A stretch of 58,166 nt of DNA from a virus (IMGVR_UViG_3300010371_000006:1-58166); one strand, 5' to 3'; positions 5,159 to 53,275 are shown, counted from the stretch's first letter. The notes: generated by a model from the sequence alone, not told the origin. Program-made: numbers and translations.

Positions 5159-5229
5159 CTTATCCTCCTTCTACCTGAGACCCGGTGCAGAGAGTTACCT
5201 CCACACCGGGCGATCGGCGGTCGGGGCGA

Positions 5230-5517
5230 TCAGCCTTCGCCCCATGGGATGGTGAGGCCTCGGTGGGCGAGTACATTGACCGGTTCACCCATGCCCAGAG
5301 CTCGGAGCTTCCTGGCGATCTCGGGTGGCATGTTGCGTCGGTTCTTGTTCATCCACTCGATGAGAGCCTTGCAGGCGGTGCAGGTCAGCTCGTTGTGGTC
5401 GAGGCTGAGTTCCTCGGGAGTCAGGTCGGCGAAGGGCACGAGCTGACAGATGACCTCCCGCTCCTGGTAGGATGGGTAGTGTACGTGGCCGAGTTCGGGG
5501 GTTTCCTTGGGTGGCAT
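5230..5517 (-). CDS. Hypothetical protein, possibly zinc-binding
   Basis: RBS AAGGAGGT; HY...IC...LTCTAC. Confidence 0.7.
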   Translation of the reverse strand: MPPKETPELGHVHYPSYQEREVICQLVPFADLTPEELSLDHNELTCTACKALIEWMNKNRRNMPPEIARKLRALGMGEPVNVLAHRGLTIPWGEG

Positions 5518-5541
5518 TGTTGATCACCTCCTTTCCTTGTT

Positions 5542-5570
5542 AGTATATCAGATCCCGACTTCTCGCGCAA
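5542..5570 (-). promoter_or_regulatory. SigA-type promoter
   Basis: TTGCGC-N17-TATACT. Confidence 0.7.
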
Positions 5571-5820
5571 TGAGCTAGTATCCTACCCCTTACTTTGTCA
5601 CTCAATGGAGCCTGACTACGATGTTATATTATGACCCCGCTGAAGCGAAGCGGGAAGCGGGGGCATAGTATAGTATCCGTGGACCAAGGGGCCAGGGACT
5701 GACCTGCCCTGATCGTTGATCGGGCCGCTTATCATCGGCCGATTTTTTTACCGAAGGTAAAATGCGCGCGCGAGGAGATAATGAGGGGGTATGATTCCTC
5801 GCGTGCGCCCGCGGACTTTT

Positions 5821-7899
5821 TCATTCCTGAAACAGGGCCCACTCGCGGCCTTCTTTGACCACGAGGCCGTAGGTGTGGGCTCGCTGGAGGGCGGAGTGGG
5901 CGTTGGAGGGGGCCATGTTGGCCTCGCGGGCGATGTCAGCGCAGCGGTGTGGACCGGGGCCCAGACGGCGAAGGGCGTTGACGACCTTGGGCTTTCGGGC
6001 GTGGGTCCATTGTTTGGGGGTGTTATCGATGACGGTGGTGCGAGCCTTCGGCTGTGTGACCTCCTCTACTCTGGGGTCGTGTATCTGGGCGCCCACGTCG
6101 AGGGTGTGACGGGGCGACCAGGTGCGCTGGGTGGGGTCGGTGACGAACTCCCAGCGGTTGCTGGGGGCTGTCTTCGACTCTAGCTCCATGGCGAAACCGT
6201 GTTCGCGGGCGGTGAGATAGAGTGAGTCCTCCGCCCAGGCGTGAAGCGCCTGAGAGCCGAGCAGGCGGGTGCCGCCGCGTACCTCGCCCTCGGGCTTGCC
6301 CTTGTTGAAGTGGTGGACGAGCATGATCGTGGTGTCCTCGCGCTTGGCGATACGCGTGAGGGGGTCGAGGATGGTGTTCATCATCTCGCCCATGTGGTTG
6401 ATGTCTGCGCCGCCCATGCCGCGCATGAGGGTGTCTATCAGCACCAGGGCGAACTTCGACTTGCTGCCGTCGCTGTGGGTGACCCCCTCGCGTATGCGCT
6501 GATGTATCATGGCGATGCAGTCGGGGTCGCTCAGGTTCACCCGCTGGTTGTGCACCAGCGTCAGCGGTATGCCCATGGTGTGGGAGGCTTTCGGCGCCCA
6601 GTCGAGACCACCTGAGCTGTTGCGCACGAGGCCCACACCGTCGAACTTAGTCTTCGACTCCCAGATCTGCCTCATACGAGCGCTGAAGAGATACTGACCG
6701 TCCTCGAGTACGAAGTACAGCACGGGGCCTGCGCTCATCACCGAGAACTTGTCGAGGAAGGGTGCGTTGTAGCCTCGGCTCGTGGCGGCGATGGACATGG
6801 CGAGATCCAGTGCCACCCAGCTCTTGCGAGCCTTCGGCTCGCCGCCGATGAATCCCACACTGCCGCGAACCAGCATGTCCTTCACGAGCCACTTCGGCGC
6901 TTTCGCAGTTCGGATGAACTCGTCGGCGGTCATGCCAGCGTAGCTCACCTCCTCGCGCAGTGACTTCTTGCGCTTCTTCCAGGCCGAGGTCGCCTGGTTG
7001 CCCAGGTCCTCGATCTCGGTCGGCCGCCCCTTGAACTTATTCCATCGTGTGGGACGAATGACCGCGACTATCTCTGCGACGGTGCAGCCCACGTCTGCCA
7101 GGCATCGCATGAAGTAGAACATCGGACGGCTACGATCTTCGCCGTCTTCAGGCCCCTTCTCCATACGCGCAAGCGCTGCGGGCGGCATATCATGCCTCAC
7201 CCGATTCAGAACCCGCTCAGCTTCGATGCTATCGACCTGGTCGAACAGCTCAGCGTCGATCGGCACCTCTTCCGAGAGGTTAGGAATCTCAGGCAGAGCG
7301 TTGAAATCCTCGGCCTGGTAGTAGGGGCCGGGCTTCTTATCCCCCCACAGCAGGCGGCCTTTCGGAAACTCCCCGTCGACCTCATACTGTGATTTGTGGT
7401 TGACCCACCCCGGCAACCTGAGCAGCTGGGTGGTGTCCCACCCACTGGGGTCGGCGTCGACCAGGTAGGTCATGCGATGGTTGTCCGCCCCCTTACGAGA
7501 GGCGCCGTAGAGATCCTCAGCCTCAGGATCCTCGAGCAACCACAGCGCCTGATATCTGCCCGGCGAAGTCTCCCACGCTACGGTCGGCCTCCACTGAGGG
7601 TCGATCTGCCGAGGGTCAGCCTCGTCGAGATCCGCCCACAGGCAGTACTCTTCCTGCGCGTAGGGCACCCGGCGCTGATCCTCGCTGAAGAGCATCGGAC
7701 ACCAGTAGAGGTCGTGATCCTCGTGAGCCACCATGTGGTCGAGGACCTCAAGGCGATCGGTCGGCCAGTAGAACGACTTGGTGTGGAACGTGCGGTTGCT
7801 GCCTTCCACCCAGGGAAAGAAGCAATAACCTTCGTTGTCATCCGACCCCCATGCCTGCGATATAATCGCCAGTATGCGGTCGGCTTCGTTAATCATCAT
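5821..7899 (-). CDS. DNA primase-helicase (RepB-like primase, RecA-family AAA_25-like helicase, C-terminal HTH)
   Basis: LWADLD, WETSPGRYQALW and LLRLPG primase motifs; Walker A GEPKARKS; Walker B LVLIDT; VHHFNK and RLLGS motifs. Confidence 0.88.
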   Translation of the reverse strand: MMINEADRILAIISQAWGSDDNEGYCFFPWVEGSNRTFHTKSFYWPTDRLEVLDHMVAHEDHDLYWCPMLFSEDQRRVPYAQEEYCLWADLDEADPRQIDPQWRPTVAWETSPGRYQALWLLEDPEAEDLYGASRKGADNHRMTYLVDADPSGWDTTQLLRLPGWVNHKSQYEVDGEFPKGRLLWGDKKPGPYYQAEDFNALPEIPNLSEEVPIDAELFDQVDSIEAERVLNRVRHDMPPAALARMEKGPEDGEDRSRPMFYFMRCLADVGCTVAEIVAVIRPTRWNKFKGRPTEIEDLGNQATSAWKKRKKSLREEVSYAGMTADEFIRTAKAPKWLVKDMLVRGSVGFIGGEPKARKSWVALDLAMSIAATSRGYNAPFLDKFSVMSAGPVLYFVLEDGQYLFSARMRQIWESKTKFDGVGLVRNSSGGLDWAPKASHTMGIPLTLVHNQRVNLSDPDCIAMIHQRIREGVTHSDGSKSKFALVLIDTLMRGMGGADINHMGEMMNTILDPLTRIAKREDTTIMLVHHFNKGKPEGEVRGGTRLLGSQALHAWAEDSLYLTAREHGFAMELESKTAPSNRWEFVTDPTQRTWSPRHTLDVGAQIHDPRVEEVTQPKARTTVIDNTPKQWTHARKPKVVNALRRLGPGPHRCADIAREANMAPSNAHSALQRAHTYGLVVKEGREWALFQE

Positions 7900-10533: not shown

Positions 10534-10769
10534 CCGTCAACATCCCCCGACCCACACTTGAGGCTCAGCCTTTCAAGTCCCTAGTAGTCAACGCGCTTGA
10601 GCCTCTCACTGGCATGCAGTGCGCCCAATGCGGCGAGCCCATCGTCGCCTGTGGATTCGACTGCGCCTTCCACGGCTACCTGCATAGCGAAGGGCCTCGC
10701 CGCGGCAGCCATAAATGTGGCGATATCAACGGCGACCGGACCGTAGTCAACGCATCTCTCCTGCCTTGA
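10530..10769 (+). CDS. Hypothetical Cys/His-rich protein
   Basis: CAQCGEPI...YLH...HKC; GTGA overlap. Confidence 0.6.
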   Translation: MTVNIPRPTLEAQPFKSLVVNALEPLTGMQCAQCGEPIVACGFDCAFHGYLHSEGPRRGSHKCGDINGDRTVVNASLLP

Positions 10770-10796
10770 CAAACCTTAATTGCCTGGTGATATATT
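10766..10796 (+). promoter_or_regulatory. SigA-type promoter (long spacer)
   Basis: TTGACA-N19-TATATT with a TG extension. Confidence 0.55.
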
Positions 10797-10834
10797 GGTA
10801 AACGACGCATCAAATCACACAGGCAACAGGAGGC

Positions 10835-11434
10835 ATGATGGGCACGTCCCTCTCGACGGGTGAGATAGCCGCATCCTTCGGCACCACCGCTCGTATTCTT
10901 CGAAAGTTCTTGCGATCGCCGCAGTCTCCATTCGAAGCAGTCGGTCAGGGGGCCCGGTACAACATCGGGACCGAAGACCTCGACGACCTCAAGGTGAAGT
11001 TCGAGGCCTGGGCCACTCGGCCCGGGTCTCGCTCCACTTCGACGGCGACGGATGAAGAACCCTCGAAGGCGGCTAAGCGATCGAAGGCGGTGCCCCAGCG
11101 ACGCAACCCGCTCGACGAGGACGACCTCCAGACCCGACTCAGCGGCTCCATTTTGGATCGCCGGCGAGCTCATGGCATGACCTGCAACTTCAGCTGGAAG
11201 CATTCGAAGGTGGCGGGCCTCGACATAAGCTGCAAGCACGACACCCACAACGGTACTAGGTTCTGCATCATGCACCAGCAGATCACCTTCTGCGGCGATC
11301 TCGACACTCCCCAGCCGGGCTACTGCGGTCCGGGCCCATACCCCAAGCCCTTCTGCAAGTGGCACAACGGGGAGATAAGCGAGGAGGAACTCGAAGCTCA
11401 TCTCGCCCTACCGGTCGAGCAGTGGGATAAGTGA
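10835..11434 (+). CDS. HTH DNA-binding protein with C-terminal Cys/His zinc-binding motifs
   Basis: STGEIAASFGTTARILRKFLRS...VGQGARY; FCIMH and FCKWH; RBS AGGAGG. Confidence 0.75.
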   Translation: MMGTSLSTGEIAASFGTTARILRKFLRSPQSPFEAVGQGARYNIGTEDLDDLKVKFEAWATRPGSRSTSTATDEEPSKAAKRSKAVPQRRNPLDEDDLQTRLSGSILDRRRAHGMTCNFSWKHSKVAGLDISCKHDTHNGTRFCIMHQQITFCGDLDTPQPGYCGPGPYPKPFCKWHNGEISEEELEAHLALPVEQWDK

Positions 11435-11470
11435 CCCCATAAACTTCCCTCTTCGTTCAGAGGGACAGAG

Positions 11471-11543
11471 CTGAGCGACTGCCGCTTCCCCTAGGCCGGG
11501 TTAAACCATATCCTCGTACCGCCCGGCGCCGGCAGTCGCTCAG
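11471..11543 (+). ncRNA. Intergenic stem-loop with a C-rich internal loop (candidate sRNA element)
   Basis: 14-bp stem CTGAGCGACTGCCG/CGGCAGTCGCTCAG, inner stem GCCGGG/CCCGGC, bulge CTTCCCCTAG. Confidence 0.45.
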
Positions 11544-14220: not shown

Positions 14221-14937
14221 CTACAGGTCGTCCAGGTCCAGGTCCTCAAGGTCGTCGTCGGTGACCGTGCGCTGAGCCGACGGCTTCTTCTTGGAGGCTG
14301 CCTTCTTGGCCGGCCGCTTCGGAGGCTCGGGCTCTTCCTCCTCGTCCTCCGGCTCCTCCTCGTCCTCCTCCGGCTCGGGCTCGGGCTGACGCTTGGCAGA
14401 CCGCTTCTTGGCCGGCGGCGGAGTGGGCTCCTCGTCCTCCTCTTCCTCCTCGTCGTCGTCCTCAGTGGTCTCGTCCTCCGGCTCCTCCTCGTCTTCGTCC
14501 TCGTCGTCGTCGACCTCCTGGCCGCTGGTCACCTCGGAGGCGGGGATGGTGTACTGCACCTCGGACTGCAGCCGGCCGTTGTACTCGGTGTCCTGCAGCG
14601 TCACGCCGATGGTGCGGCCGACGATCTTGTTGGGGTCGAGGGCGACCCGCTTCTTGGGTATGACAGTGCCGGCGGCCGCGAAGAGCTGGCGCAGCTTCCA
14701 CAGCGAGTTCTCTTCGAGCTTGCAGTAGACCGGGTAGGTGCCGACCTGGCTGACGCCCTTGGTCGTGACCTTGACTTCGATCGTGTACAGGTACATCGGC
14801 GTCTTGTCCTTGGCGACGACGTCCTGGACGTCCTTGATCCTCGCCAGGTAGTCGCCCTCACGGAGGCGCAGCTTGTTGAACTGACCGCCCCCGTCCTTCA
14901 CGTTCGTGAAGTCGACTGTCTGCTTCTTGGCAGGCAT
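14221..14937 (-). CDS. ssDNA-binding protein (DUF669-like) with acidic tail
   Basis: LREGDYLARI...LWKLRQLFAA...YNGR; long Asp/Glu tail; sits next to a Sak4-like ATPase. Confidence 0.75.
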   Translation of the reverse strand: MPAKKQTVDFTNVKDGGGQFNKLRLREGDYLARIKDVQDVVAKDKTPMYLYTIEVKVTTKGVSQVGTYPVYCKLEENSLWKLRQLFAAAGTVIPKKRVALDPNKIVGRTIGVTLQDTEYNGRLQSEVQYTIPASEVTSGQEVDDDEDEDEEEPEDETTEDDDEEEEEDEEPTPPPAKKRSAKRQPEPEPEEDEEEPEDEEEEPEPPKRPAKKAASKKKPSAQRTVTDDDLEDLDLDDL

Positions 14938-15777: not shown

Positions 15778-16842
15778 CTAGGATCGGGTCCCTTCGCGCT
15801 CGTCCTGGTAGTAGTACATCGGGTCTTTCTCGATATAGCCGTTGGTACGAACGGTTCGAGGGTTGCCGCCCATCAGCTCCACAGTACAGAGATCGCCGTA
15901 GCTGCAGGTGTACTCGCAGCTGCGATCCACGACGCGCTCGATCGAGTCTTCGTGAGCAAACGGGTACCGTTGGATGCGCTGCACCGTGTGGTAATACTCC
16001 TTGGCCACCTTCTGCAGCATCACATGGTCTTTGTCAAGCGACTCACGTCTGAAGAAGGGGGAGGTTTGGATCTCGCCGGGCTTGTACTTCTGCTTCTTGA
16101 GGTATGTCAGTTTGGCCTTGATCTGTTCAAGGTCGACCGGCCTCCGCTGCAGCTGACCCGAGCGCATTAGCGCCTCCACACCTCGCCGCATCGTGAGGTA
16201 GTCGGTCTCGCCCATGACCTTCGAGAGGCGGGTGCCGTCCTTAAGAGCCTTTGGCTTCGACGGCGGCACGGTGCGGATGTAGTTCCATTTGAAACCACAG
16301 ATGCCCAGGTTCTTCTTCAACGCAGCCCACAGGTAGAGGGCAGATTGGCCGTCGAGCAGCCGGAAGGTGAGATCGGGCATCTTCTTATGGGTCTTGTGGT
16401 CCCAGATCCAGAGACCGAACTGGTCCTCCATGAGGGCGTCGACCCGGCCACGATAGAGCACCCCGTTGGGCAGTTCGGCCTCTATGGTGTACTCAGTGGC
16501 GATGCAGGTGACTGGGTCGTCCTCGTAGTACCAGAGGTAGGACTCCATGAGGTCGGCCAGCTCTGTGGGAAGATCGCCGTAGTAGTCCTTCTCCTCGTCG
16601 AAGATCTGGTTGAACTTCGCCGACCGCCGCTCGTGTTCGGCCTTCCAGTCACGCCCCGAGTGATGCTCTTCGAGAAGGGCGTGCATCCAGGTGCCTCGTT
16701 CGAGCGGCTTCGAGAGGCGCTTCGGAGCGAGTCGCTGCAGGTACTTGTAGTCGTACTGCTTGGGGCAACGACGGAAGACCTTCAGTGAGGAGTGAGTGAC
16801 CACCTCCTTACCAATAGCCGGGTCGACGTAGAGATTACTCAT
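15778..16842 (-). CDS. PD-(D/E)XK Cas4/RecB-like exonuclease
   Basis: SSLKVFRRCP, GTWMHALLE, GRVD, DHKT, Q..LY and a C-terminal Cys cluster. Confidence 0.88.
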   Translation of the reverse strand: MSNLYVDPAIGKEVVTHSSLKVFRRCPKQYDYKYLQRLAPKRLSKPLERGTWMHALLEEHHSGRDWKAEHERRSAKFNQIFDEEKDYYGDLPTELADLMESYLWYYEDDPVTCIATEYTIEAELPNGVLYRGRVDALMEDQFGLWIWDHKTHKKMPDLTFRLLDGQSALYLWAALKKNLGICGFKWNYIRTVPPSKPKALKDGTRLSKVMGETDYLTMRRGVEALMRSGQLQRRPVDLEQIKAKLTYLKKQKYKPGEIQTSPFFRRESLDKDHVMLQKVAKEYYHTVQRIQRYPFAHEDSIERVVDRSCEYTCSYGDLCTVELMGGNPRTVRTNGYIEKDPMYYYQDEREGTRS

Positions 16843-17086: not shown

Positions 17087-19609
17087 CTAGGCAACCAACC
17101 CCATCTTGTCGAGGGTCGTGAAGTTGTAGATCTGGTCTTCGGTGAGCTCCTTCGAGTCGCCCCAGTGCCGCCCGACCTTGACGTCGGCGATGATCGGGAT
17201 GTCCATCTCAAGGCCGAAGAGTCGGTGCATGTTGTCCATATCCTGCATGGACTCCTTCAGCAGAACCATCGCTTCGCCGGCGATCTCATCATCTGCCTCG
17301 ATGTTGATCGCGTCGTGCACGAGCCCGAGCACTGCGACTCGGTCTTGAAGATCTCTCTCCTCGAGCCGCTGGTTGAAGAGATTCATGCCGGCGAGTGCCA
17401 TATCGGAGGCGAGCCCCTGCACAGGCGAGTTGATCGCCTGTCGCTCAGCCTCTGCACGAACCCCCGCCTCAGGCGAGTAGATGTCGGGCAGGTGTCGGAT
17501 TCGCCCGATGGGCGACTGCACCCGGCCGTTGGCGGCGACCAATCGGCGCTGACGGTTGTGCCAAGATTCGAGATCAGGATAGAGATCGAAGTACGCCTTA
17601 CGGTATTGCTGAGCCTCGTACTCAGTGAACTTGACCCCATAGTTGTTGAACGCGGTGATGATGAACTTTCGCCAGCCCATCCCATAGAGGAAGCCGAAGT
17701 TCACTGGCTTGGCCTTCTTGCGTTCTTCCTTCGTGACGTGCTTCTCGCTCTTGCCCGTCATGCGCATGGCGGTGACCATGTGAATGTCTGCGCCCTGGCG
17801 GTAGAGCGACATCATCATGCGCTCACGGGCTATGAACGCAGCGACCCTAAGCTCGATCTGAGAGAAGTCAGCTTCGATCCATGTTCTGCCAGGAGTCGCT
17901 CCGAAGAGACCACGAATAAACGGGTCTCTTGGTACCTGCTGGAGATTGAGTCCGCGCAGCGCAGAAGTTCTGCCACTGAGCTTTGAAGCATCTTCCTTAC
18001 CGCTACTAAGCCGCCCGGTGACAGTGCCGGCCAACTTGAACGAGGTGTGGACATGGTGGGTGTCATCATAGAGCGTCGAATACGGGCCGAAGAACGACGA
18101 CATGGCCTTCTGCCATTCGATGCGAGCCAGCATACTCGGCACGACAGGGTGTGGATTTGGCACGTCGTTGAGTAGGAGTAGAACTCCCTCAGCCATGCTT
18201 GGATCGCCGGGCCGGCCATCAGGTTTCTCTTTACCTCGAGCCAGTACAGGTAGCCCGAGATGTTCGAAGAGGAGCCACTTGGAGAAGATTGAAGCGTTGA
18301 GATTAACCTCCACCTTCTTGCCAGCTTTGTTCCTCGGCCACGTTTCGATGTCGGCGTCGGGAATGTGCAGCCTGACCTGGCTCTCGATCTCGTCGAGCTT
18401 AGCCTGGGCGATCGGGGTGCGTTCGCGTAGCCTCTCGACGTCAATCCAGACACCATGACCCTCCGCGGTCGTGAGATTGTTGCTCGCCGGCATCATCAAC
18501 TTCATGAAGATACGCAGCAGGCGAGGCTGGGCGATCAGCTCTTCGCGGAGCTGGAGATAGATCAAGTAGCCGTAGTAAGTGTCGAGGAAGTTGTACTCGA
18601 GCACCTCATCTATCGCCATCTCCAAGAGGTTCTTCGTGTCGACGCCCCATGGTGCGACGCCAAGACGCATCTGCCCCTGGGGCTTGAGGCCTTTCTGCAC
18701 ATTCTCATCGAGTAGATGCACAGCAAGCATGGTGTCGAATGATAGTTCAAGTTTGACCCCGGTGAATCTTCGGAGCCACCTGCAGTCGAACTTACCGTTG
18801 TGAGCGATGCGAATCTTGATCTTCGCCATGATGGGTACGATATGGCGGAGCACGGATCGCCAGGTAGTACGCCAGGGTGACTCAGGGTGGAAGAGTGGCA
18901 GTTTGAATCCGAGCAGCTCGCCGTCGACCATATAGGTTCCACACATCGAGATGATGCGCGCGCTCGGGTCGAACTCTTGCAGTGGGACGATGTTGGTCTC
19001 GATGTCGAAGTAGATCAGTGAGGCCTTCTTGAGTCGGCCCATGAGCTGTGAGAGATCACGCTTCGACTCGATCACCTTGGCGGGGATGATCTCGACCTGA
19101 TCTGCCTGCTGCCCACTCACAAGTGTGGAGAAGAACTTCAGATCGGCCTGGTAGCTGGGCCGGTTCTGAGGTCGAGCGAGCACCGCTGAGGGGGATATCG
19201 TCGGAAAGACTATGTATCCGTCCTTCTCAACAGGGCGGCCTCGATACTTGGTGATGCCGCTGTGACCCGTTGTCGACAGTAGCGCCTCGTTGCCCAGTGA
19301 GAGGATGTACTTGGGCTTGACCTGAGCTATCTCGGCTTCAAGATACTGTCGGCAGGCCTTCACATCCGAGTTACTCGCGTTGGCGTCGAAGTTCCGGCAC
19401 TTCAGCGCGGTTGACCACCAGACCCGCCTCAGGTCCACCCCAGCCTGCGCGAGGTCTTCCTCGAGCGCATCCTGATAGCGTTTGGAGTTTGGCATCTTCG
19501 ACACCACCATGATGTCGGCCTGCTTCGGTCCGAAGCCCGGCTCGCAGACTTCGTCCATCCCGCGATGAAGCTTGCAGGCGGTGCAACTGGAATTGTAGAT
19601 CATCTGCAC
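17087..19609 (-). CDS. Family A DNA polymerase with N-terminal UDG family 4-like domain and 3'-5' exonuclease
   Basis: FDIET, AHNGKFD and YNFLD (exonuclease); TGRLSS, NLQQVP, ADFSQIELR, RKKAKPVNFGFLYG and VHDA (polymerase); N-terminal CTAC...KC...AC. Confidence 0.95.
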   Translation of the reverse strand: MQMIYNSSCTACKLHRGMDEVCEPGFGPKQADIMVVSKMPNSKRYQDALEEDLAQAGVDLRRVWWSTALKCRNFDANASNSDVKACRQYLEAEIAQVKPKYILSLGNEALLSTTGHSGITKYRGRPVEKDGYIVFPTISPSAVLARPQNRPSYQADLKFFSTLVSGQQADQVEIIPAKVIESKRDLSQLMGRLKKASLIYFDIETNIVPLQEFDPSARIISMCGTYMVDGELLGFKLPLFHPESPWRTTWRSVLRHIVPIMAKIKIRIAHNGKFDCRWLRRFTGVKLELSFDTMLAVHLLDENVQKGLKPQGQMRLGVAPWGVDTKNLLEMAIDEVLEYNFLDTYYGYLIYLQLREELIAQPRLLRIFMKLMMPASNNLTTAEGHGVWIDVERLRERTPIAQAKLDEIESQVRLHIPDADIETWPRNKAGKKVEVNLNASIFSKWLLFEHLGLPVLARGKEKPDGRPGDPSMAEGVLLLLNDVPNPHPVVPSMLARIEWQKAMSSFFGPYSTLYDDTHHVHTSFKLAGTVTGRLSSGKEDASKLSGRTSALRGLNLQQVPRDPFIRGLFGATPGRTWIEADFSQIELRVAAFIARERMMMSLYRQGADIHMVTAMRMTGKSEKHVTKEERKKAKPVNFGFLYGMGWRKFIITAFNNYGVKFTEYEAQQYRKAYFDLYPDLESWHNRQRRLVAANGRVQSPIGRIRHLPDIYSPEAGVRAEAERQAINSPVQGLASDMALAGMNLFNQRLEERDLQDRVAVLGLVHDAINIEADDEIAGEAMVLLKESMQDMDNMHRLFGLEMDIPIIADVKVGRHWGDSKELTEDQIYNFTTLDKMGLVA

Positions 19610-19827
19610 CATTCGCACTTTCTATGTGTGTGGCTGTGTTTCTCTTGACCCTCGGGATGAGTGTGGGCGAAATAGCCCCCACACCTGGCGAGATGCTCGT
19701 GCCAGTTCGGTCCGAACTTCTCGCCAGGAAAGAGGCCTACCAACTTCTCTCGGTCGCCCGACCACTCATCAACACCGTAGCCCTTGTCAGGAGCTATGTC
19801 GGGCGCCTTAGTGCCACGATCTTTCAT
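19600..19827 (-). CDS. Hypothetical protein
   Basis: ATGA-coupled to the deaminase gene. Confidence 0.5.
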   Translation of the reverse strand: MKDRGTKAPDIAPDKGYGVDEWSGDREKLVGLFPGEKFGPNWHEHLARCGGYFAHTHPEGQEKHSHTHRKCEWCR

Positions 19828-20324
19828 GTACCAAATTTTACCACACTCAGGCCGCCGGATCTAAGGAGGTCCTGCCCCTCGTGAGATCGGTAGGTCTCCA
19901 GGTACTGGACCTCCACTATGCCCGCATTGATAATGAGCTGAGCGCAGGCATAGCAAGGAGTCAGCGTGGAGAACAACCTCGCGCCGGCGAGTGCGATGCC
20001 GTTACGTGCAGCGAAGGCGATGGCGTTGGCTTCACCATGTACTGCGATCTTGCACGGCGTCTGAGTAGCGCAGGTCGTCGCGTGCAACTGGACTCGACGG
20101 TACGGAGCTTTATTCTCGCAGTTGCACCGGTGGTCGCAGTGGGGCATGCCCGACGGCGCGCCGTTGTAGCCGGTGCAGAGGATGCGATTGTCGGCCGAGG
20201 CGATCACTACTCCTACGTTGTTGCGGTCGCAGGTGGATCGTCGCGCCCAGACCTGGGCGCTGTGCATAAGCGTCTCCTCGATCGGGGGACGTTTGCGCGG
20301 GGGGAAATTATCGGTGACGGTCAT
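19824..20324 (-). CDS. dCMP deaminase
   Basis: RSTC.R..VG, TGYNGAP, VHGEANAI, PCYAC. Confidence 0.92.
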   Translation of the reverse strand: MTVTDNFPPRKRPPIEETLMHSAQVWARRSTCDRNNVGVVIASADNRILCTGYNGAPSGMPHCDHRCNCENKAPYRRVQLHATTCATQTPCKIAVHGEANAIAFAARNGIALAGARLFSTLTPCYACAQLIINAGIVEVQYLETYRSHEGQDLLRSGGLSVVKFGT

Positions 20325-21202
20325 CTCAAGCTCCTAAGCAAGCTCTCAGACTTCCTACGGCCGTACCCATCAGCGAATTGCTCGAGCGCATGCAAGTCGC
20401 CAGCGAAGCAGTGCATGGACATGGTGTGCATAGTCAGGTTGCCCATCATGACCTTGGGATTACTGACATCCAGGTTGAACTGGTGGTTGACCCACTGGGC
20501 GAGACGAATCGCCATGTAGACGTCGTCGCGGAAGTGTCGAACGAAGTCGACCGCCCGTATCAGATACGTGACGTGAAGCTGGTTGTCACGTATCATGAAG
20601 TGGTAGCCGAGAGTACATGGCACTCGCTGACCCTGAGTGGCACCCGTGTCCTCGGAGAACCATACGGGCAGATAAGCCTGACGGGTCTCGGGATCCTTGA
20701 TCAACAAGTTAACCACGTCACGCAAGTCACCAAGCTGAAACCGGATACCTGCCTGGGGTCCAGCCGGGCACATTTCATCGGCTCGGGCTGTGCTGCAGTA
20801 CCCAGAGATATCGTGGCCCGCGTGCCTGGGCCAGAATCGCTCGGGGTATGTGTGGGAAAATTGACCCCAGTGGTCCGTATGGCTACTGTGACCTGCCTGA
20901 GCATGGGGCCAATGAGCTGCGCTCGGAGGCGGATTCAGAGGCACACCTCCGACCCGCTCTTGGAAGTGGTCCTCCGCCCACGGCAGGTTAGGCTGGGTGT
21001 AACTGGCGGCGACGTCCTTGCGTGCCGGCATGTTCATCTCGAAGATGACGTTCTGGAGCTCGATCGGTACCATGTCAGGCTGGGTACGTATGTCCTGCCC
21101 CTGCCATCGTGTGGAACCCTCGACCCGCTGGCCCAACGCCAGCAGGCGCTGAGCGATGTCCTCATAGATCTGAGGAAAGCTGTGTGAACTGATGACGTGC
21201 AC
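20321..21202 (-). CDS. Thymidylate-synthase-fold enzyme 1 (dCMP hydroxymethylase-like)
   Basis: DPETRQA, VPCTLGYHF, RAVDFVRHFRDD, SMH; GTG start after GAAGGAGG. Confidence 0.85.
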   Translation of the reverse strand: MHVISSHSFPQIYEDIAQRLLALGQRVEGSTRWQGQDIRTQPDMVPIELQNVIFEMNMPARKDVAASYTQPNLPWAEDHFQERVGGVPLNPPPSAAHWPHAQAGHSSHTDHWGQFSHTYPERFWPRHAGHDISGYCSTARADEMCPAGPQAGIRFQLGDLRDVVNLLIKDPETRQAYLPVWFSEDTGATQGQRVPCTLGYHFMIRDNQLHVTYLIRAVDFVRHFRDDVYMAIRLAQWVNHQFNLDVSNPKVMMGNLTMHTMSMHCFAGDLHALEQFADGYGRRKSESLLRSLR

Positions 21203-21459
21203 TATGCCCTCCTTCTCTTGATAGCGATACCTGCGTTCATCTGACTCCTCATCTGCAGCCGGTGACGGATCTCGATCAGCTGCAGAGTCTGTACCAGATA
21301 GGCCGCGTCCTTCATCGTGGGGTAGGTCATGATGTGGATCTTGTGCTGCGGTGAGCCTTCGATCCATCGTACAACATCCCACTGATCGCCGCTAGGCTCC
21401 GCGGCGAACTCGTAGACGATGCCCTCGTTGAGGGCGACTCCGCTGCTACCCTTCGCCAT
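21202..21459 (-). CDS. Hypothetical protein between the two TS-fold genes
   Basis: Fills the gap and is coupled to both neighbours; start inferred. Confidence 0.55.
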   Translation of the reverse strand: MAKGSSGVALNEGIVYEFAAEPSGDQWDVVRWIEGSPQHKIHIMTYPTMKDAAYLVQTLQLIEIRHRLQMRSQMNAGIAIKRRRA

Positions 21460-22510
21460 CCTCTTCATCCTCCCCACACAAGATGCAGAACGCATCCGAC
21501 GTCTCGATTTCGTCGAGCGCCTTCGGCATCTCGCCGGGCTTGAACTTGATCGGCGAGAGATCGAGACCCGACGTCCAGCAGTTGGGCAGAGGCTTGTAGG
21601 CGGCGAAGAACTCCCGCTCCTGCCCAGCCTTCTCGTGGCCATTCTTGTAGTAGGAGTAACCTTCGAACTCCTGGGCCTTCTTGTGCCCGAGCACCTCGGT
21701 GTGCCACCGCCGGCGGACTCGCCGGTAGGTGTTGTACGTTGTGTCGCCGAGCGTGTAGCCGAGCTGATCCTCTTTGCGGACCATGTTCAGCCACCGCCGA
21801 GAGATGTTCATCGCCGGCGTGGTAGCCAGCGCCATCATCTCGGGATTGTCGTCCCAGGCGCTGAGCTTCTTGAGCAGAATCCTGCGGTACAGCGAACGGA
21901 TGTCTTCGTCGGTGTTGGTCAGGGCGAAGGGCAGCGACTTGAAAGCGTGCCACTGCACCGACTCGGCCATCCACACGAATCGGAAGTCGCTCATCTGCAG
22001 CTTGAGCTGCTGGGCGAGGTATCGCGCCAGCACTTCGGCGATCGTGAAGTCCAGCGCCGAGAGGTACCCGAGATAGGATGTGCGACTGTGGAGTGTGATG
22101 GTCGGCTGGGGCTTCGCGCGATAGCTGATGCTCAGCATGCACGAGCCCCATCGCCGGGTCTCCATGTTGGTGTGACCTGTGGCGGCACCCCCGCGCGGCT
22201 TGACCACTCGGGTACGCAGCACTGCCTGGCCCCGGTCGCGGCGACCGATGCGGTTGACGCACTGGCTCATCCAGACCGCCACATCGAGCGGGTCGAGGTA
22301 CTGCCGGACCATCATGGACCATCGGGAGCTGGTGAGCCACAACGACTTGAGGTCGAAGTCCCACTCCATCGAGTCGGCCTGACCGACAATGTTGTCGATG
22401 GTCACGTCGACGTTCGAGATAACCCCGAGCTGCTCCCTCGGCGCTTGCATGATGTCCAAACACATCTTAGTGTGCAGGGCGTTCATGTCTTCGGCCGTGT
22501 AAGTCTTCAC
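21446..22510 (-). CDS. Divergent thymidylate-synthase-fold protein 2
   Basis: GSCMLSISY...ITLHSRTSYLGYLSALD...FRFVW parallels the TS pattern PC...QF...QRS.D......N...FVW. Confidence 0.6.
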   Translation of the reverse strand: MKTYTAEDMNALHTKMCLDIMQAPREQLGVISNVDVTIDNIVGQADSMEWDFDLKSLWLTSSRWSMMVRQYLDPLDVAVWMSQCVNRIGRRDRGQAVLRTRVVKPRGGAATGHTNMETRRWGSCMLSISYRAKPQPTITLHSRTSYLGYLSALDFTIAEVLARYLAQQLKLQMSDFRFVWMAESVQWHAFKSLPFALTNTDEDIRSLYRRILLKKLSAWDDNPEMMALATTPAMNISRRWLNMVRKEDQLGYTLGDTTYNTYRRVRRRWHTEVLGHKKAQEFEGYSYYKNGHEKAGQEREFFAAYKPLPNCWTSGLDLSPIKFKPGEMPKALDEIETSDAFCILCGEDEEDGEG

Positions 22511-22647
22511 TAGAACCCTTCGATGATCTTGATGGCCAGGTAGACGACGCATAGGAATGCGAGAAGGAGACCGCCCCCGCAGATCACGAGGGCGGCCACC
22601 TGCCCGAAGACCTTGGCTACCCTAGTAGCCGGTGGTCTGTCGCTCAC
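22510..22647 (-). CDS. Small membrane protein (45 aa, below the ORF-track cutoff)
   Basis: MSDRPPATRVAKVFGQVAALVICGGGLLLAFLCVVYLAIKIIEGF; TAGTG coupling to the TS2 gene. Confidence 0.5.
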   Translation of the reverse strand: MSDRPPATRVAKVFGQVAALVICGGGLLLAFLCVVYLAIKIIEGF

Positions 22648-23110
22648 GGTTCTTCTCCCAGGCGTGGAAGTAGCCCCAGAACAGGTCGTTCGGCGTGATG
22701 CCGGCGACGATGCAGAACTCGATGAAAAAGTGCAGGGTGTCCGAGACCTCCTCGACGAACTCCTGCCGATCGGTCGGCCGGGGGTTGTCCTTCCAGGGCT
22801 TCATGTCGAGATGGCTCATGGCCTCGGCCATCTCGCGGGACATGAAGCCGTAGAGGCTGTGGAGGCGCATCTGCACGGTGCGGGACTCGAGGATGCCGTG
22901 GTCGTCGACCTCGGGCATGGGCTCGCCGTTGCGCTTCTCCTGCTCGTGGTACTTCTGCATGAGCGCGGTCTGGCCGGCGAAGATGGTCGCCAGCATGTCG
23001 TAGGTGTGGCGCTGCGGGTATCCGTCCTCCACACGGTTGGCGGGGACGAACGGCACGCCGGACTTGCTGGAGTTCTCGTTGTCTTCGGGGTCGGCGGGTA
23101 TCTCGATCAT
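22622..23110 (-). CDS. All-alpha dimeric dUTPase/dCTPase (MazG superfamily)
   Basis: EMAE....KPWK...EEVSDTLHF. Confidence 0.85.
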   Translation of the reverse strand: MIEIPADPEDNENSSKSGVPFVPANRVEDGYPQRHTYDMLATIFAGQTALMQKYHEQEKRNGEPMPEVDDHGILESRTVQMRLHSLYGFMSREMAEAMSHLDMKPWKDNPRPTDRQEFVEEVSDTLHFFIEFCIVAGITPNDLFWGYFHAWEKNRERQTTGY

Positions 23111-23655
23111 CTGTGGATCCATTTCTTGTAGGTCTGGTCGAAGTGGTCGAGCCACTGGGACATGTCGTGCTCGTCGTACTTGTAGACCAGCTGATACTGC
23201 TGGCCCATCTCCCACAGGGCGGTCCATCGCGCGATCTCGGCCATGTAGCCCCGGTAGATCTTGCCGATGAACGGCCGGACGAACTCGTTCTCCTTGCCGG
23301 CGCAGTTCTTCTCGACGACGTCGAAGTTCGGCATGCACCAGATGATGAGCGGCTTGAGCGAGTAGAACTCAGCGATCTGGGACCGCAGCCAGTCGACATC
23401 CCAGAAGGTCTCGTCGCGGTTGCCGCCGATGGCGAGCGAGTAGATCGGCTCCGAGATCAGGCGGTGCCGGTCGTACAAGATCTCCGGTTCGCCGATGTCC
23501 TTCTGGAGATTCTGCTCGACCCAGAGCCGCAGGTTAGTGAGCGGGTTGGTGTTCTGATCGACTACCCGAGCAGCTACGGGCAGCTTGTACACCTTGGCTA
23601 GGTGTTTGATGAGCGTGGTCTTGCCGGCCCCATCGGGACCCTCGAGTATGATCAC
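23107..23655 (-). CDS. dNMP/thymidylate kinase-like protein
   Basis: IILEGPDGAGKTT; YDRH..SEPIY. Confidence 0.88.
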   Translation of the reverse strand: MIILEGPDGAGKTTLIKHLAKVYKLPVAARVVDQNTNPLTNLRLWVEQNLQKDIGEPEILYDRHRLISEPIYSLAIGGNRDETFWDVDWLRSQIAEFYSLKPLIIWCMPNFDVVEKNCAGKENEFVRPFIGKIYRGYMAEIARWTALWEMGQQYQLVYKYDEHDMSQWLDHFDQTYKKWIHR

Positions 23656-26756: not shown

Positions 26757-27293
26757 ATGATCTTACCAGTGATACTGGGTCAGGCACCATCCCGTCAGGG
26801 AGATGGCCGACCTTTCACCGGCCCTAGTGGGGACCGGTTGCTCAAGATGATCGGGGTGGCGACTCGAGACGACCTGCTCACGTTGTTCCGCCTGGAGAAC
26901 TTGTTCAACACTCCGTTGCCCCCACACCCGCCGCGCAAGCCCAACGGCCACACGGTGAAGAACACCTTCAACAAGGCCCGAGGTCGTGAGGCTGCGTTGG
27001 ACTTCGTCCAGCGGCAGAACGACTACCTGATCAACCAGCTGGGTCCGAAGGGTGCCGAAGACTTCCACAAGGTCCACAATTACATCGAGGTCATCGTCCT
27101 CGGCAAGAAGGTGTGGGAATCGTTCGGACTGAGGGGTGACGCGAGCTTGTTCTCCTCGGTGCGTAGTCGCCGGTGGTACATCCAGTTCTACCGGTTCCCT
27201 CATCCGAGCGGGCTGAACCATCAGCTCAACGATCCCGAGATCCTCCAAGCAGCTTCTCAGCACTTGAAGCGCATCGCCGGCATTACCTCTTGA
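26757..27293 (+). CDS. Uracil-DNA glycosylase superfamily protein
   Basis: LGQAP, PFTGPSG, ENL, VLGKK, FPHPSGLN. Confidence 0.8.
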   Translation: MILPVILGQAPSRQGDGRPFTGPSGDRLLKMIGVATRDDLLTLFRLENLFNTPLPPHPPRKPNGHTVKNTFNKARGREAALDFVQRQNDYLINQLGPKGAEDFHKVHNYIEVIVLGKKVWESFGLRGDASLFSSVRSRRWYIQFYRFPHPSGLNHQLNDPEILQAASQHLKRIAGITS

Positions 27294-52280: not shown

Positions 52281-52430
52281 TCAGCTGTGCTTGAAGCCTC
52301 TCGCCAGACTAGCGCAAGCTATGGCGCAGGTCACCAGCGCCACCGACCAGGCCCAGCTGCCACCGTAGGCGCCGGCGAAGATCCCAGCGCCCGTGTAGAC
52401 GCAGGCCATGATCTTGAGGGCTAGGTTCAC
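52281..52430 (-). CDS. Small membrane protein
   Basis: Two short hydrophobic segments; GTGA overlap with thyX. Confidence 0.5.
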   Translation of the reverse strand: MNLALKIMACVYTGAGIFAGAYGGSWAWSVALVTCAIACASLARGFKHS

Positions 52431-53275
52431 GGTGCGACCCTCCCGTACTGCTGGAACGCCCGCCACGTGAACTGCATGTGCTGACCGAGGAACTGCTCCA
52501 TCGCCCGAGCCACCTGCTCGATCTCAGCCTGCGGCTTGCTCGGGTAGGCTGCCGACGGGGCCGAGGTGCGCAGGCTCAGGAAGTGCATGAGCGACCGGGC
52601 GTTGCAGGTGGCGTACATGGAGCTGTAGATGCCGACCGGCAGCACCGTGCGGGCGACCTCGCGAGCCACCCCGGCGTTCAGCATCTTACGGTAGGCGCGC
52701 CAGGCGACCTCGTAGGCGACGTGAGTGGCCTCAGTCACCGCCAGCTCCGTCTCAGGCGTGCCGTGTGTCAGCTCGTAGTGACCGGACTTGCCGATCTGCA
52801 CGAGCTTACGACCGACCTCAGGCACCCAGAAGTGAGGCTGCAGCTCACGGTACCGTGCCGACTCCTCGTTGTAGCTCCACCCCACACGGTGGCGGTGGAA
52901 CTCGCGCATCACGAAGACCGGCGCGGTGATCAGAAACGTGAACTGGTTGTGCTCGAACGGCGAGCCGTGACGGTTTCTCATCAGGTACTTGATCAGCAGC
53001 TCGCTGGGCTGGTCCTCGACGTAGGTGCCCGTGTCGGCACCGAGCGTGCTCACCCGGGCGGCGGCTACGACCATGTCGTCCGACGCGTTCACCGCCACCA
53101 GCTGCACGTGCATGTCGCTGTCGTACCGGATGTCGTACACCGGCACCGGATAGCCCTGCTCGTCCTGCTTGTGATGACGAGGCGTGCCTCCCGGCAGCCA
53201 CACGGTCGCCGAGTCACCCGCCTCGAACTGCTGGGGCGGATCGATCGGCGTCTCTCCCAGTACGTTGTCGTTCAA
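52427..53275 (-). CDS. thyX: Flavin-dependent thymidylate synthase
   Basis: AARVS, HGSPFEH, RHRVGWSYNEESARY, EVARTVLP, QAEI; alternative start at 53113. Confidence 0.95.
   Translation of the reverse strand: MNDNVLGETPIDPPQQFEAGDSATVWLPGGTPRHHKQDEQGYPVPVYDIRYDSDMHVQLVAVNASDDMVVAAARVSTLGADTGTYVEDQPSELLIKYLMRNRHGSPFEHNQFTFLITAPVFVMREFHRHRVGWSYNEESARYRELQPHFWVPEVGRKLVQIGKSGHYELTHGTPETELAVTEATHVAYEVAWRAYRKMLNAGVAREVARTVLPVGIYSSMYATCNARSLMHFLSLRTSAPSAAYPSKPQAEIEQVARAMEQFLGQHMQFTWRAFQQYGRVAP

Follow-up and report, generated by a model that had tools for sequence, protein, structure and literature searches.

A putative cytosine-modification gene cluster with two thymidylate-synthase-fold proteins beside the PolA gene of a soil metagenome virus

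The gene cluster upstream of PolA

The window analysed here is the whole 58,166-nucleotide stretch IMGVR_UViG_3300010371_000006, from a soil metagenome virus. At 19824-23655 on its minus strand, just upstream of the gene for DNA polymerase I (PolA), lies a putative modified-cytosine cluster of five gene types: a kinase, a PF08761 pyrophosphatase, two proteins of the thymidylate synthase (TS) fold called TS2 and TS1, and a dCMP deaminase. A preliminary description had placed five co-oriented and coupled genes directly upstream of the polymerase, and all five are present on this strand with stop/start overlaps. Two small ORFs inside the cluster were absent from it. The features are listed in the order of transcription, with the separate ThyX gene last.

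23107..23655, minus strand: P-loop nucleoside-monophosphate kinase, thymidylate-kinase-like, 182 aa (phrog_761)
22622..about 23131, minus strand: all-alpha NTP pyrophosphatase of the dimeric dUTPase family, putative dCTPase/dUTPase (PF08761, phrog_12184)
22510..22647, minus strand: small hydrophobic ORF of about 40-45 aa between the pyrophosphatase and TS2 (ORF list)
21446..22510, minus strand: TS2, TS-fold protein, 354 aa, GTG start (phrog_13667, AF2 and Foldseek)
21202..21468, minus strand: small ORF of about 88 aa between TS2 and TS1 (ORF list)
20321..21202, minus strand: TS1, divergent TS homologue, about 293 aa, GTG start (phrog_160, residue table)
19824..20324, minus strand: zinc deaminase of the dCMP/cytidine deaminase family (PF00383, phrog_174)
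19600..19827, minus strand: 75-aa ORF (orf75) between the deaminase and PolA (ORF list)
17087..19618, minus strand: PolA, DNA polymerase I carrying a 3'-5' exonuclease and, at the N-terminus, a domain of the UDG superfamily (PF00476, PF03167, PF01612)
52427..53275, minus strand: ThyX, flavin-dependent thymidylate synthase (PF02511, TIGR02170)

The cluster genes are translationally coupled, with stops overlapping the next starts. The overlaps are TAGTG at the TS2 and TS1 starts and of the ATGA type at the pyrophosphatase, deaminase and orf75 starts, the first of these overlapping the kinase stop. The ORF at 22510..22647 encodes a hydrophobic peptide and its terminal TAG overlaps the TS2 GTG. 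Likewise, the TAG of the 88-aa ORF overlaps the GTG of TS1, whose ribosome-binding site is AAGGAGGG.

The module order is kept across 48 related IMG/VR loci, where blastp finds TS1 in 47, the kinase in 46 and the deaminase in 44, the last lying between TS1 and PolA. The unmatched ORFs upstream of TS2 in related loci all belong to PF08761 (4/4). The cultured phages Muddy, Shrew and Serbin share the same module order, with the kinase position corresponding to Muddy gp49, Shrew gp72 and Serbin gp53. Shrew gene 75 is a small gene at the place of the 88-aa ORF. The 75-aa ORF has no Pfam or PHROG match and a blastp counterpart in only 1 of the 48 loci.

The kinase matches phrog_761, 'thymidylate kinase', at 3e-13. 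Its Pfam and NCBIfam matches are to the P-loop only and all below the cut-offs, and its PDB relatives by sequence do not go beyond the P-loop. We propose that its substrate would be modified dCMP, dTMP or both. The deaminase matches PF00383 at 7e-19 and phrog_174 at 1.4e-46, and is 47% identical to Muddy gp45 with the HxE and PCxxC residues invariant. PolA carries PF00476 (1.3e-69), PF03167 (6.4e-13) and PF01612 (2.6e-8).

The pyrophosphatase matches PF08761 (dUTPase_2) at 1.7e-6, with 28.9 bits against a cut-off of 22.9, and phrog_12184 at 3.3e-27; no PDB relative was found by sequence. The same PF08761 model matches, also above the cut-off, a 180-aa T4 open frame at 16273-16428, which we take to be gene 56 (dCTPase/dUTPase). 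It matches the corresponding frames of RB69, above the cut-off, and of Muddy as well. On these family matches, the enzyme is proposed to be a putative dCTPase/dUTPase.

Residues and folds of TS1 and TS2

The preliminary description had counted two TS-fold genes. TS1 is one by sequence: it matches phrog_160 at 2.5e-27, and its best PDB sequence matches by phmmer are MilA (4e-4) and then the N229D mutant of L. casei TS. It is a divergent homologue, as PF00303 gives 17.5 bits, under the Pfam gathering cut-off of 24.3. Its AF2 model has a pLDDT of 76 with residues 91-158 poorly modelled, and its top Foldseek matches are 9iqu and MilA. Within this region, the folate-binding helix region of ThyA is replaced by an insert of its own that is conserved.

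We aligned TS1 by MAFFT with E. coli ThyA, T4 gp42, RB69 td, RB69 gp48, SPO1 gp29 and Xp12 TS, taken from public records. In E. coli numbering, TS1 retains the catalytic Cys146, Arg166 and the pterin-binding Asp169. It differs from ThyA by Asp for Asn177, Arg for Leu143 and Thr for His147; the alignment is unstable at Glu58 and Tyr94. The substitution at 177, claimed before, holds in both the PDB matches, where phmmer pairs it with the Asp of MilA and that of the N229D mutant, and these alignments. Position 177 is Asp in TS1, TS2, T4 gp42, RB69 gp48 and Xp12 TS, and Asn in E. coli ThyA, RB69 td and SPO1 gp29; the Asp of TS2 had gone unmentioned.

These residues are conserved among the 47 related TS1 ORFs, two of which have alignment gaps at each position. 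The catalytic Cys, Asp177 and Arg143 each occur in the other 45, while Asp169 occurs in 44 with one Glu. According to the accessible text of PMC8670742 and PMC13326640, an Asn177Asp change makes a TS into a dCMP methylase and Asp177 is enriched in modified-cytosine contigs. The Asp at position 177 together with the catalytic Cys would mark TS1 and TS2 as cytosine-acting enzymes.

A rival reading is a plain dTTP supply, with TS1 as an ordinary thymidylate synthase making dTMP from dUMP despite its Asp. GenBank annotations of all the cultured relatives call TS1 'thymidylate synthase', and its dUMP would come from the adjoining dUTPase-family enzyme and the dCMP deaminase. However, Asp177 is invariant, the Asn-to-Asp mutants in the two papers cited above switch to dCMP, and ThyX in this genome would make such a synthase superfluous. 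Neither protein has the marks of a canonical ThyA, with TS1 under the PF00303 cut-off, TS2 lacking a Pfam match and both carrying Asp177. The TS1 profile scores Xp12 TS the highest (35.1 bits), followed by RB69 gp48 (29.9), T4 gp42 (24.0), SPO1 gp29 (23.7), RB69 td (18.8) and E. coli ThyA (12.0), so the two thymidylate synthases, E. coli ThyA and RB69 td, come last. We consider the ordinary synthase very improbable.

TS1 is rather proposed to be a folate-dependent dCMP C5-methylase or hydroxymethylase. As the region 91-158 could not be modelled, Asp169 is the one residue from which folate use is predicted. The preliminary description left 5-methylcytosine (5mC), 5-hydroxymethylcytosine (5hmC), 5-hydroxycytosine or something new as the final base, and the residues favour the first of these. 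In the accessible text of PMC13326640, dCMP/dUMP hydroxymethylases (T4 gp42, MilA and SPO1 gp29) have Asp or Glu at the Leu143 position and 5-hydroxy-dCMP synthases have Asn at the Asp169 position. Residue 143 is Arg in TS1 and Trp in TS2, and residue 169 is Asp in TS1 and Tyr in TS2, pointing away from the T4-type 5hmC and 5-hydroxycytosine products, respectively.

The TS1 combination of Asp177, non-acidic 143 and Asp169 is instead that of the Xp12-type methylase. Across the enzymes, residue 143 is Arg in TS1, Asn in Xp12 TS with its methyl product, Asp in T4 gp42 and SPO1 gp29, and Glu in RB69 gp48. Arg143 itself has no characterised precedent, so our choice of methyl over hydroxymethyl is a weak call.

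TS2 is a TS by fold only and not by sequence family. It has no Pfam or NCBIfam match and matches phrog_13667, 'unknown function', at 5e-93. Its AF2 model (pLDDT 85) finds by Foldseek 9iqu (HY126 dCMP hydroxylase), T4 dCH, MilA and TS at the top; the PDB matches listed are TS-family enzymes with one exception (4f2v_B), at low TM-scores of 0.36 by query and 0.56 by target. TS2 is a member of an uncharacterised phage-only family.

At its active site, TS2 retains the Cys nucleophile and Arg166 and, like TS1, has Asp in place of Asn177. Asp169 and Leu143 are replaced by Tyr and Trp, respectively, and the Tyr94 region is missing. In the ORF pieces from related loci, the Cys, Arg and Asp are found in 49/49, Tyr169 in 49/49 and Trp143 in 48/49. 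Among 114 full-length representatives of TS2 clusters, the Cys and the Arg are each present in all 114, and position 177 is Asp in 109 and Glu in 5. TS2 adjoins TS1 in 47 of the 48 loci, the remaining one being truncated at a contig end. Serbin has a remote TS2-like gene at the same place (hhalign E 0.0026, probability 11.6%).

From these residues, TS2 is predicted to act on cytosine by covalent catalysis, as TS1 would, and it is the constant companion of TS1. Its role may be that of a partner subunit or of a second step. A complex prediction of TS1 with TS2 scores 0.55 against 0.00 for the best control, and the runs share at least 72% of contacts with a partner pLDDT of at least 80. Solved complexes reach the mark in 58 of 80 cases and mismatched pairs in 2 of 110; scores of at most 0.60 include only 7 of the 80 solved complexes but both passing mismatched pairs. 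Since TS homodimers are already solved, the score may reflect memory of those structures.

The two proteins may make a derivative other than 5mC or 5hmC, where TS1 would install a one-carbon unit and TS2 would alter or exchange the C5 substituent of the nucleotide by the same Cys-C6 covalent chemistry without folate. The loss of Asp169 and the Tyr94 region from TS2 while its Cys, Arg and acidic residue 177 stay agrees with it, as do its constant place next to TS1, the same arrangement in Muddy and Shrew, the remote Serbin gene and, weakly, the complex prediction. However, the second step is without precedent, no downstream transferase is found in the module across the 48 loci, the complex score may come from the solved homodimers and a regulatory or structural subunit is another role that TS2 could have. 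We hold this derivative to be unlikely. About equally doubtful is its broader form, a two-protein system acting as a heterodimer or in consecutive steps, with a cytosine derivative so far undescribed in DNA, across a very large siphovirus group of Actinomycetota and Proteobacteria including Muddy.

ThyX and the thymidine supply

The preliminary description had ThyX encoded separately at 52.4-53.3 kb, and the gene is there by PF02511 (8.9e-46, 156.5 bits) and TIGR02170 (178.6 bits against a cut-off of 87.9). It had further reasoned that ThyX frees the TS-fold enzymes for dCMP, which fails as a general rule. ThyX is missing from 4 of 5 near-complete metagenomic relatives, and also from Muddy, Shrew, Serbin and Xp12; in each of the two sets of five genomes, only one has it. 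Altogether 8 of 10 related genomes lack it. As these all carry an Asp-type TS1, the Asp does not depend on ThyX. The relatives with neither ThyX nor any Asn-type TS still retain the module, and ThyX is an accessory gene rather than its constant partner.

Where thymidine nucleotides come from bears on an indirect thymidylate route with canonical DNA. TS1 would methylate dCMP, the deaminase would turn all of the 5-methyl-dCMP into dTMP and the kinase would make dTDP, with no accumulation of 5-methyl-dCTP. This accords with the thymidylate-kinase-like match of the kinase, the deaminase directly downstream of TS1 in 44 of the 48 loci and the finding in Xp12, in the accessible text of bioRxiv 10.1101/2024.12.05.627091, that thymidine nucleotides derive from 5-methyl-dC nucleotides. 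Moreover, the only paper that we found discussing the operon reads it as thymine synthesis (PMC10353413).

The literature on relatives also fits the canonical DNA. Our literature searches on Muddy-, GTE2-, Shrew- and Serbin-type phages turned up no description of modified bases. For Muddy, which has been repeatedly sequenced and engineered, we came across no remark on unusual DNA, the accessible portions of PMC11604996 and PMC12646305 being silent on this point.

On the other hand, the route is a roundabout one to dTMP, given dUMP and the host TS, and the window phage already has ThyX. Without dCTP exclusion, the route offers little reason for a gp56-family pyrophosphatase, and it leaves TS2 without a role. 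As far as the cited sources extend, every system in which such a TS was tested had modified cytosine in its DNA. The indirect route thus appears improbable, although less so than the ordinary synthase.

Proposed pathway and known systems

The likeliest reading is a replacement of cytosine by a C5-modified cytosine, most likely 5mC. The cluster would probably act before replication, supplying the phage with a C5-modified deoxycytidine nucleotide to build into its DNA. From gene content, order, folds and active-site residues, we infer all substrates and products and the modified base in virion DNA, and likewise the completeness of the pathway and the replacement of cytosine that the preliminary description had claimed.

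In this pathway, the PF08761 pyrophosphatase would convert dCTP and dUTP to monophosphates, lowering the dCTP pool. The TS1 Cys would attack C6 of dCMP while Asp177 reads the 4-amino group, and a one-carbon unit would be transferred from methylene-tetrahydrofolate, as the retained pterin-binding Asp169 suggests. The foremost candidate for the product is 5-methyl-dCMP, which we favour tentatively. Next would be 5-hydroxymethyl-dCMP, in our estimate unlikely, and then another TS2-dependent derivative, more unlikely still. Phosphorylation of the product to the triphosphate would fall to the neighbouring kinase and the NDP kinase of the host, and the phage PolA is proposed as the polymerase that would incorporate it.

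The deaminase would supply thymidine nucleotides in either of two ways. It may provide dUMP for ThyX in the window phage, or it may directly deaminate 5-methyl-dC nucleotides as in Xp12. The latter would account for the dispensability of ThyX in most relatives.

The preliminary description had called the pathway T4-like. The same five roles as in the T4 5hmC pathway (gp56, gp42, gp1, Cd and Td) are indeed predicted from the genes here, and T4 gp56, presumably the matched T4 frame, shares the Pfam family of the pyrophosphatase. T4 gp42 and TS1 share Cys, Asp169, Asp177 and Thr147, whereas residue 143 is Asp in gp42. T4 also differs in its ThyA-type Td in place of ThyX, its scattered genes rather than one coupled operon and its lack of TS2, and its gp1 is a dNMP kinase while the window kinase is thymidylate-kinase-like. 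A Pfam scan of 29 window ORFs, all lying outside the structural-gene half of the genome, gave no glycosyltransferase, which differs from T4 and agrees with the earlier observation.

The 5-hydroxy-dCMP synthases (RB69 gp48, DLP3 gp80 and HY126 AfhB; PDB 9iqu) are the best Foldseek match of both models and share Asp177 and Thr147. However, their diagnostic Asp169-to-Asn change, seen in RB69 gp48, is absent from TS1 and TS2, RB69 gp48 has Glu143 against Arg143 of TS1, and no arabinosyl- or glycosyl-transferase genes were found among the scanned ORFs. A weak point in favour of the modified base, taken without a control genome, is that avoidance of palindromes is not marked in the window: among the 46 six-base palindromes expected at least 5 times, 1 has an observed/expected ratio below 0.3.

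Overall, the system looks more Xp12-like (5mC) than T4-like. The closest likeness is to the Xp12 5-methylcytosine system, whose TS homologue QNN97214 (MT664984) makes 5mdCMP. Like TS1, the Xp12 TS has the Cys nucleophile, Asp169, Asp177 and a non-acidic residue 143, and it scores best of the six references. Its deaminase gene directly adjoins the TS gene, and Xp12 lacks ThyX as most window relatives do. It differs in having a single TS-fold gene without TS2, flanked by DHFR and HAD hydrolase genes instead of the PF08761 pyrophosphatase and kinase. Its TS keeps the ThyA Arg21, Glu58, Trp80 and long C-terminus, whereas TS1 has its own insert at the folate-helix region, and residue 143 is Asn rather than Arg.

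The MetaGPA modified-cytosine phages, metagenomic like the window phage from soil, have the same neighbourhood and Asp177. In the accessible text of PMC8670742 and bioRxiv 10.1101/2024.12.05.627091, an Asp-type TS with dCMP deaminase and PolA marks the modified-cytosine phage contigs. In the preprint text, 104 of the 149 deaminase genes in modified-cytosine contigs lie within 3 kb of a TS gene, as do 17 of the 277 in unmodified contigs, and PolA and a pyrophosphohydrolase are among the top neighbours in the former. Five of seven such TS produced 5mdCMP and the deaminases favoured 5mdCTP. The pyrophosphatase there is PRA-PH (PF01503) rather than PF08761, and the accessible parts of these papers do not mention a second, Pfam-invisible TS-fold gene as in the window. 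The module seen here is common to many described phages, including the therapeutic, clinically used phage Muddy, which the preliminary description had not noted.

Organization and conservation of the gene cluster

The window, a virus record of 58,166 bp, is complete, with direct terminal repeats at its ends and a G+C content of about 0.6; its sequence is present in two soil-metagenome DNA runs, with no RNA run listed. The ORF list, Pfam, PHROG and, for TS2, a structure model bear out the cluster that the preliminary description had placed at 19824-23655, with all of its gene types, including two of the thymidylate-synthase (TS) fold, TS1 and TS2. It runs on the minus strand, from 23655 down to 19824.

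Genes of the cluster in the order from 23655 to 19824, and the two genes that follow
First in cluster, minus strand: P-loop kinase, 182 aa; phrog_761 'thymidylate kinase', 3e-13
After the kinase, minus strand: pyrophosphatase, dimeric-dUTPase family; PF08761, 28.9 bits against a cut-off of 22.9
22510-22647, minus strand: small hydrophobic ORF, ~40 aa, preceding TS2; its TAG end overlaps the GTG start of TS2
21446-22510, minus strand: TS2, 354 aa, between the small hydrophobic ORF and the 88-aa ORF; no Pfam match; phrog_13667 'unknown function', 5e-93
21202-21468, minus strand: 88-aa ORF between TS2 and TS1; its TAG end overlaps the GTG start of TS1
20321-21202, minus strand: TS1, ~293 aa, after the 88-aa ORF; PF00303, only 17.5 bits against a cut-off of 24.3; phrog_160, 2.5e-27
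Last of cluster, ending at 19824, minus strand: dCMP-deaminase-family protein; PF00383, 7e-19
Between the deaminase and PolA, minus strand: 75-aa ORF (orf75); no Pfam or PHROG match
17087-19618, minus strand: PolA with an N-terminal UDG-like domain, after orf75

Stop and start overlap at every junction read in the cluster, as TAGTG at the TS2 and TS1 starts and by four bases at the deaminase and orf75 starts, and the pyrophosphatase starts within the 3' end of the kinase gene. Sequence searches of the PDB with the kinase, the pyrophosphatase, TS2 and the UDG-like protein gave nothing useful.

The order SNF2 helicase, kinase, PF08761, TS2, TS1, deaminase, PolA, PD-(D/E)XK and AAA_24 is conserved across 48 IMG/VR loci from relatives. 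Of these, 47 have TS1, 46 have the kinase and 44 have the deaminase; the sole locus lacking TS1 ends just past TS2. The pyrophosphatase is matched by blastp in only 25, and the unmatched ORFs upstream of TS2 proved to be PF08761 in all four tested. The module also occurs in 85 GenBank phage records, including Gordonia, Mycobacterium, Streptomyces, Microbacterium and Curtobacterium phages, and TS2 has 1032 homologues in a collection of 5.8 billion proteins, forming 229 clusters at 50% identity.

The nearest cultured relatives for the module genes are actinophages, namely Curtobacterium phage Shrew, Microbacterium phage Triscuit, Streptomyces phage Zuko, many Gordonia phages and Mycobacterium phage Muddy. 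The virus may thus reasonably be called actinophage-like. Muddy (gp50-gp44) and Shrew keep the same module order. Muddy gp45 (5221-5763 of its locus), annotated as a hypothetical protein, belongs to the dCMP-deaminase family, with 47% identity to the window deaminase and conserved HxE and PCxxC motifs. Serratia phage Serbin has, in the place of TS2, a gene that resembles it only remotely (hhalign E 0.0026, probability 11.6%), with the Cys and Arg...Asp motifs in register.

Several neighbours were noted in passing. Shrew has a small gene at the place of the 88-aa ORF, in the gap between TS2 and TS1. In MW202777 (Manatee Spring virus), Cys and Arg...Asp motifs like those of TS2 occur in an unannotated plus-strand frame at about 5160-5950 of its locus, between a 'hypothetical protein' and a 'pyrimidine hmase' gene; the same phage has ThyX and a deaminase adjoining PolA. 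One relative (L039) carries a Tad3 anti-Thoeris gene at 7156-7641 on the plus strand between the SNF2 helicase and the kinase (PF25185, 3e-25), and a distant one (L067) an MT-A70 adenine-methyltransferase-family gene at 10733-11530, also plus, between TS1 and deaminase/PolA (PF05063, 4e-32). Downstream of the AAA_24 gene, the window encodes a 238-aa protein (14221-14937, minus strand) that matches phrog_14876 'DNA polymerase' at 1e-43 with no convincing Pfam match, and it is conserved in 36 of the 48 loci.

Folds and active sites of TS1 and TS2

TS2 is predicted to have a thymidylate-synthase fold. Its AF2 model (pLDDT 85) is matched by Foldseek in the PDB to the TS family, with HY126 dCMP hydroxylase, T4 dCMP hydroxymethylase and MilA followed by many ThyA; 4f2v_B is the single listed match outside the family. 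TM-scores reach a modest 0.36 when normalised by query and 0.56 by target. Profile-profile comparison of TS1 with TS2 detected no sequence similarity, so their kinship is visible at the fold level only.

Both were aligned by MAFFT with publicly deposited sequences of six reference enzymes, E. coli ThyA, T4 gp42, RB69 td, RB69 gp48, SPO1 gp29 and Xp12 TS; T4 td was excluded as its two exons need joining. In E. coli ThyA numbering, TS1 keeps Cys146, Arg166 and Asp169 and has Asn177 replaced by Asp, Leu143 by Arg and His147 by Thr. TS2 keeps Cys146 and Arg166 and has Asn177 replaced by Asp, Asp169 by Tyr and Leu143 by Trp. The Asp of TS1 at position 177, already read in the preliminary description, is reached independently by phmmer against the PDB, which aligns it with the Asp of MilA and of the L. 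casei N229D mutant.

Position 177 is Asp in 45 of 47 TS1 ORFs from the 48 loci, the other two being gaps, and in all 49 TS2 ORF pieces. Among 114 full-length TS2 cluster representatives, the Cys and the Arg are invariant (114/114 each) and position 177 is Asp in 109 and Glu in 5. The TS1 alignment is unstable around Glu58, Trp80 and Tyr94, where TS1 has a conserved insert of its own and residues 91-158 have pLDDT below 50 in AF2.

The conserved nucleophile and the acidic residue 177 argue for TS2 being a working cytosine-directed catalyst, and the lost Asp169 and folate-helix region argue against classical folate chemistry in it. A complex prediction for TS1 with TS2 scored 0.55 against 0.00 for the best control, with the runs agreeing on at least 72% of contacts and partner pLDDT of at least 80. 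Of 80 solved complexes, 58 attain the mark it passed, and so do 2 of 110 mismatched pairs; with scores of 0.60 or below, just 7 of the solved complexes attain it, along with both of the mismatched pairs. The support is weak, and since TS homodimers are solved, the pass may reflect structures already familiar to the predictor. TS2 may serve as a partner subunit or in a second step. It is the new, uncharacterised element.

The proposed modified cytosine and thymidine supply

According to PMC13326640 (sections 24 and 28), TS turns to dCMP as its substrate when Asn177 becomes Asp, an acidic residue 143 accompanies hydroxymethyl products and Asp169 to Asn marks the flavin-dependent 5-hydroxy-dCMP synthases. 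Asp177 is also enriched among modified-cytosine contigs, as PMC8670742 has it. TS1 hence reads as a cytosine-directed enzyme. Its retained Asp169 makes folate dependence probable, and its residues carry neither the hydroxymethylase nor the hydroxylase signature.

Among the six references, the TS1 profile scores Xp12 TS best at 35.1 bits, versus 12.0 for E. coli ThyA. Xp12 TS makes 5mdCMP and, like TS1, has a non-acidic residue 143, although it is Asn in Xp12 and Arg in TS1. With both signatures absent and Xp12 TS closest in these two respects, 5mC would rank first as the product, but weakly, as Arg143 is without characterised precedent. T4-type 5hmC is placed below 5mC since residue 143 is Arg, not acidic. 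The RB69-type 5-hydroxycytosine is out as first choice since the Asp169-to-Asn signature is absent, despite 9iqu being the top fold match. The module's likeness to Mesyanzhinovviridae replication modules suggested thymidine hypermodification via 5hmdU, of the M6 or SPO1 type, but this is rejected because such enzymes keep Asn177, as in SPO1 gp29.

A Pfam scan of 29 window ORFs revealed no glycosyl-, carbamoyl- or other transferase, the lack of a glycosyltransferase having been described before, and neither does the module of the 48 loci contain one. The search there for hypermodification genes gave divergent PF08761 genes, a single MT-A70 and a single Tad3, and nothing else. Palindromic 4- and 6-mers show no marked avoidance over the whole window: of the 46 six-mers expected at least 5 times, only ATGCAT falls below an observed/expected ratio of 0.3 (1 observed, 5.7 expected), computed for the window alone. 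This is compatible with protected DNA and, computed so, carries little weight.

ThyX at 52427-53275 is solid by Pfam and NCBIfam profile matches. It had been proposed to free the TS-fold enzymes for making modified dCMP, which is not general. Four of five near-complete metagenomic relatives lack it, as do Muddy, Shrew, Serbin and Xp12; MW202777 has it, and 2 of the 48 loci carry it no more than 9 kb from the module. Muddy has no further PF00303 match. Asp-type enzymes are thus usual whether or not a phage has ThyX, and ThyX is an accessory gene. Beside it, at 53295-55348 on the minus strand, lie a JAB-domain protein (PF14464, 1.5e-6; PHROG 'tail protein') and a 462-aa ORF that neither Pfam nor PHROG matches.

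In an Xp12-like scheme, thymidine nucleotides would be obtained by deaminating 5-methyl-dC nucleotides, which fits Asp-type enzymes without ThyX. In bioRxiv 10.1101/2024.12.05.627091, deaminase genes lie within 3 kb of a TS gene in 104 of 149 cases in modified-cytosine contigs versus 17 of 277 in unmodified ones, with PolA and a pyrophosphohydrolase among the top neighbours in the former; five of seven such TS yielded 5mdCMP, and the deaminases favoured 5mdCTP.

A cytosine-directed pre-replicative pathway is therefore the best reading of the module, one we hold to be somewhat more probable than not. The earlier interpretation as T4-like cytosine replacement is supported in part; the pathway appears closer to Xp12 than to T4. 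We found no literature report of DNA modification in these cultured phages or on the TS2 family. The accessible text of the Muddy papers (PMC11604996 and PMC12646305) is silent on modified cytosine; what the former terms 'epigenetic modification' relates to phage BPs. The Azira announcement labels the operon thymine synthesis (PMC10353413).

If the reading is true, a very common replication module yields cytosine-modified DNA, bearing on restriction evasion, host range and nanopore or enzymatic-methyl sequencing of these phages and on the behaviour of the therapeutic phage Muddy. Genes now labelled 'thymidylate synthase', 'hypothetical protein' or 'thymine synthesis operon' would be reassigned. 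TS2 would be an unstudied TS-fold branch whose nucleophile is conserved and whose chemistry may be new. Cultured members exist, so the prediction is cheap to test.

UDG-superfamily proteins

Residues ~27-154 of PolA form an N-terminal UDG-superfamily domain (PF03167, 6.4e-13). By eye, it has four cysteines spaced like what we take to be the Fe-S ligands of family-4 UDGs, and the motifs presumed to be catalytic, SKMPN and ISPS, both seem degenerate, so the domain may bind rather than excise.

A stand-alone UDG-superfamily protein is encoded at 26757-27293 on the plus strand (PF03167, 8.9e-9; phrog_12275), with GQAPS and HPSG motifs and no PDB or NCBIfam relative by sequence. In a phage possibly carrying modified C, this glycosylase could handle deamination products. 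It lies near the module in 5 of the 48 related loci.
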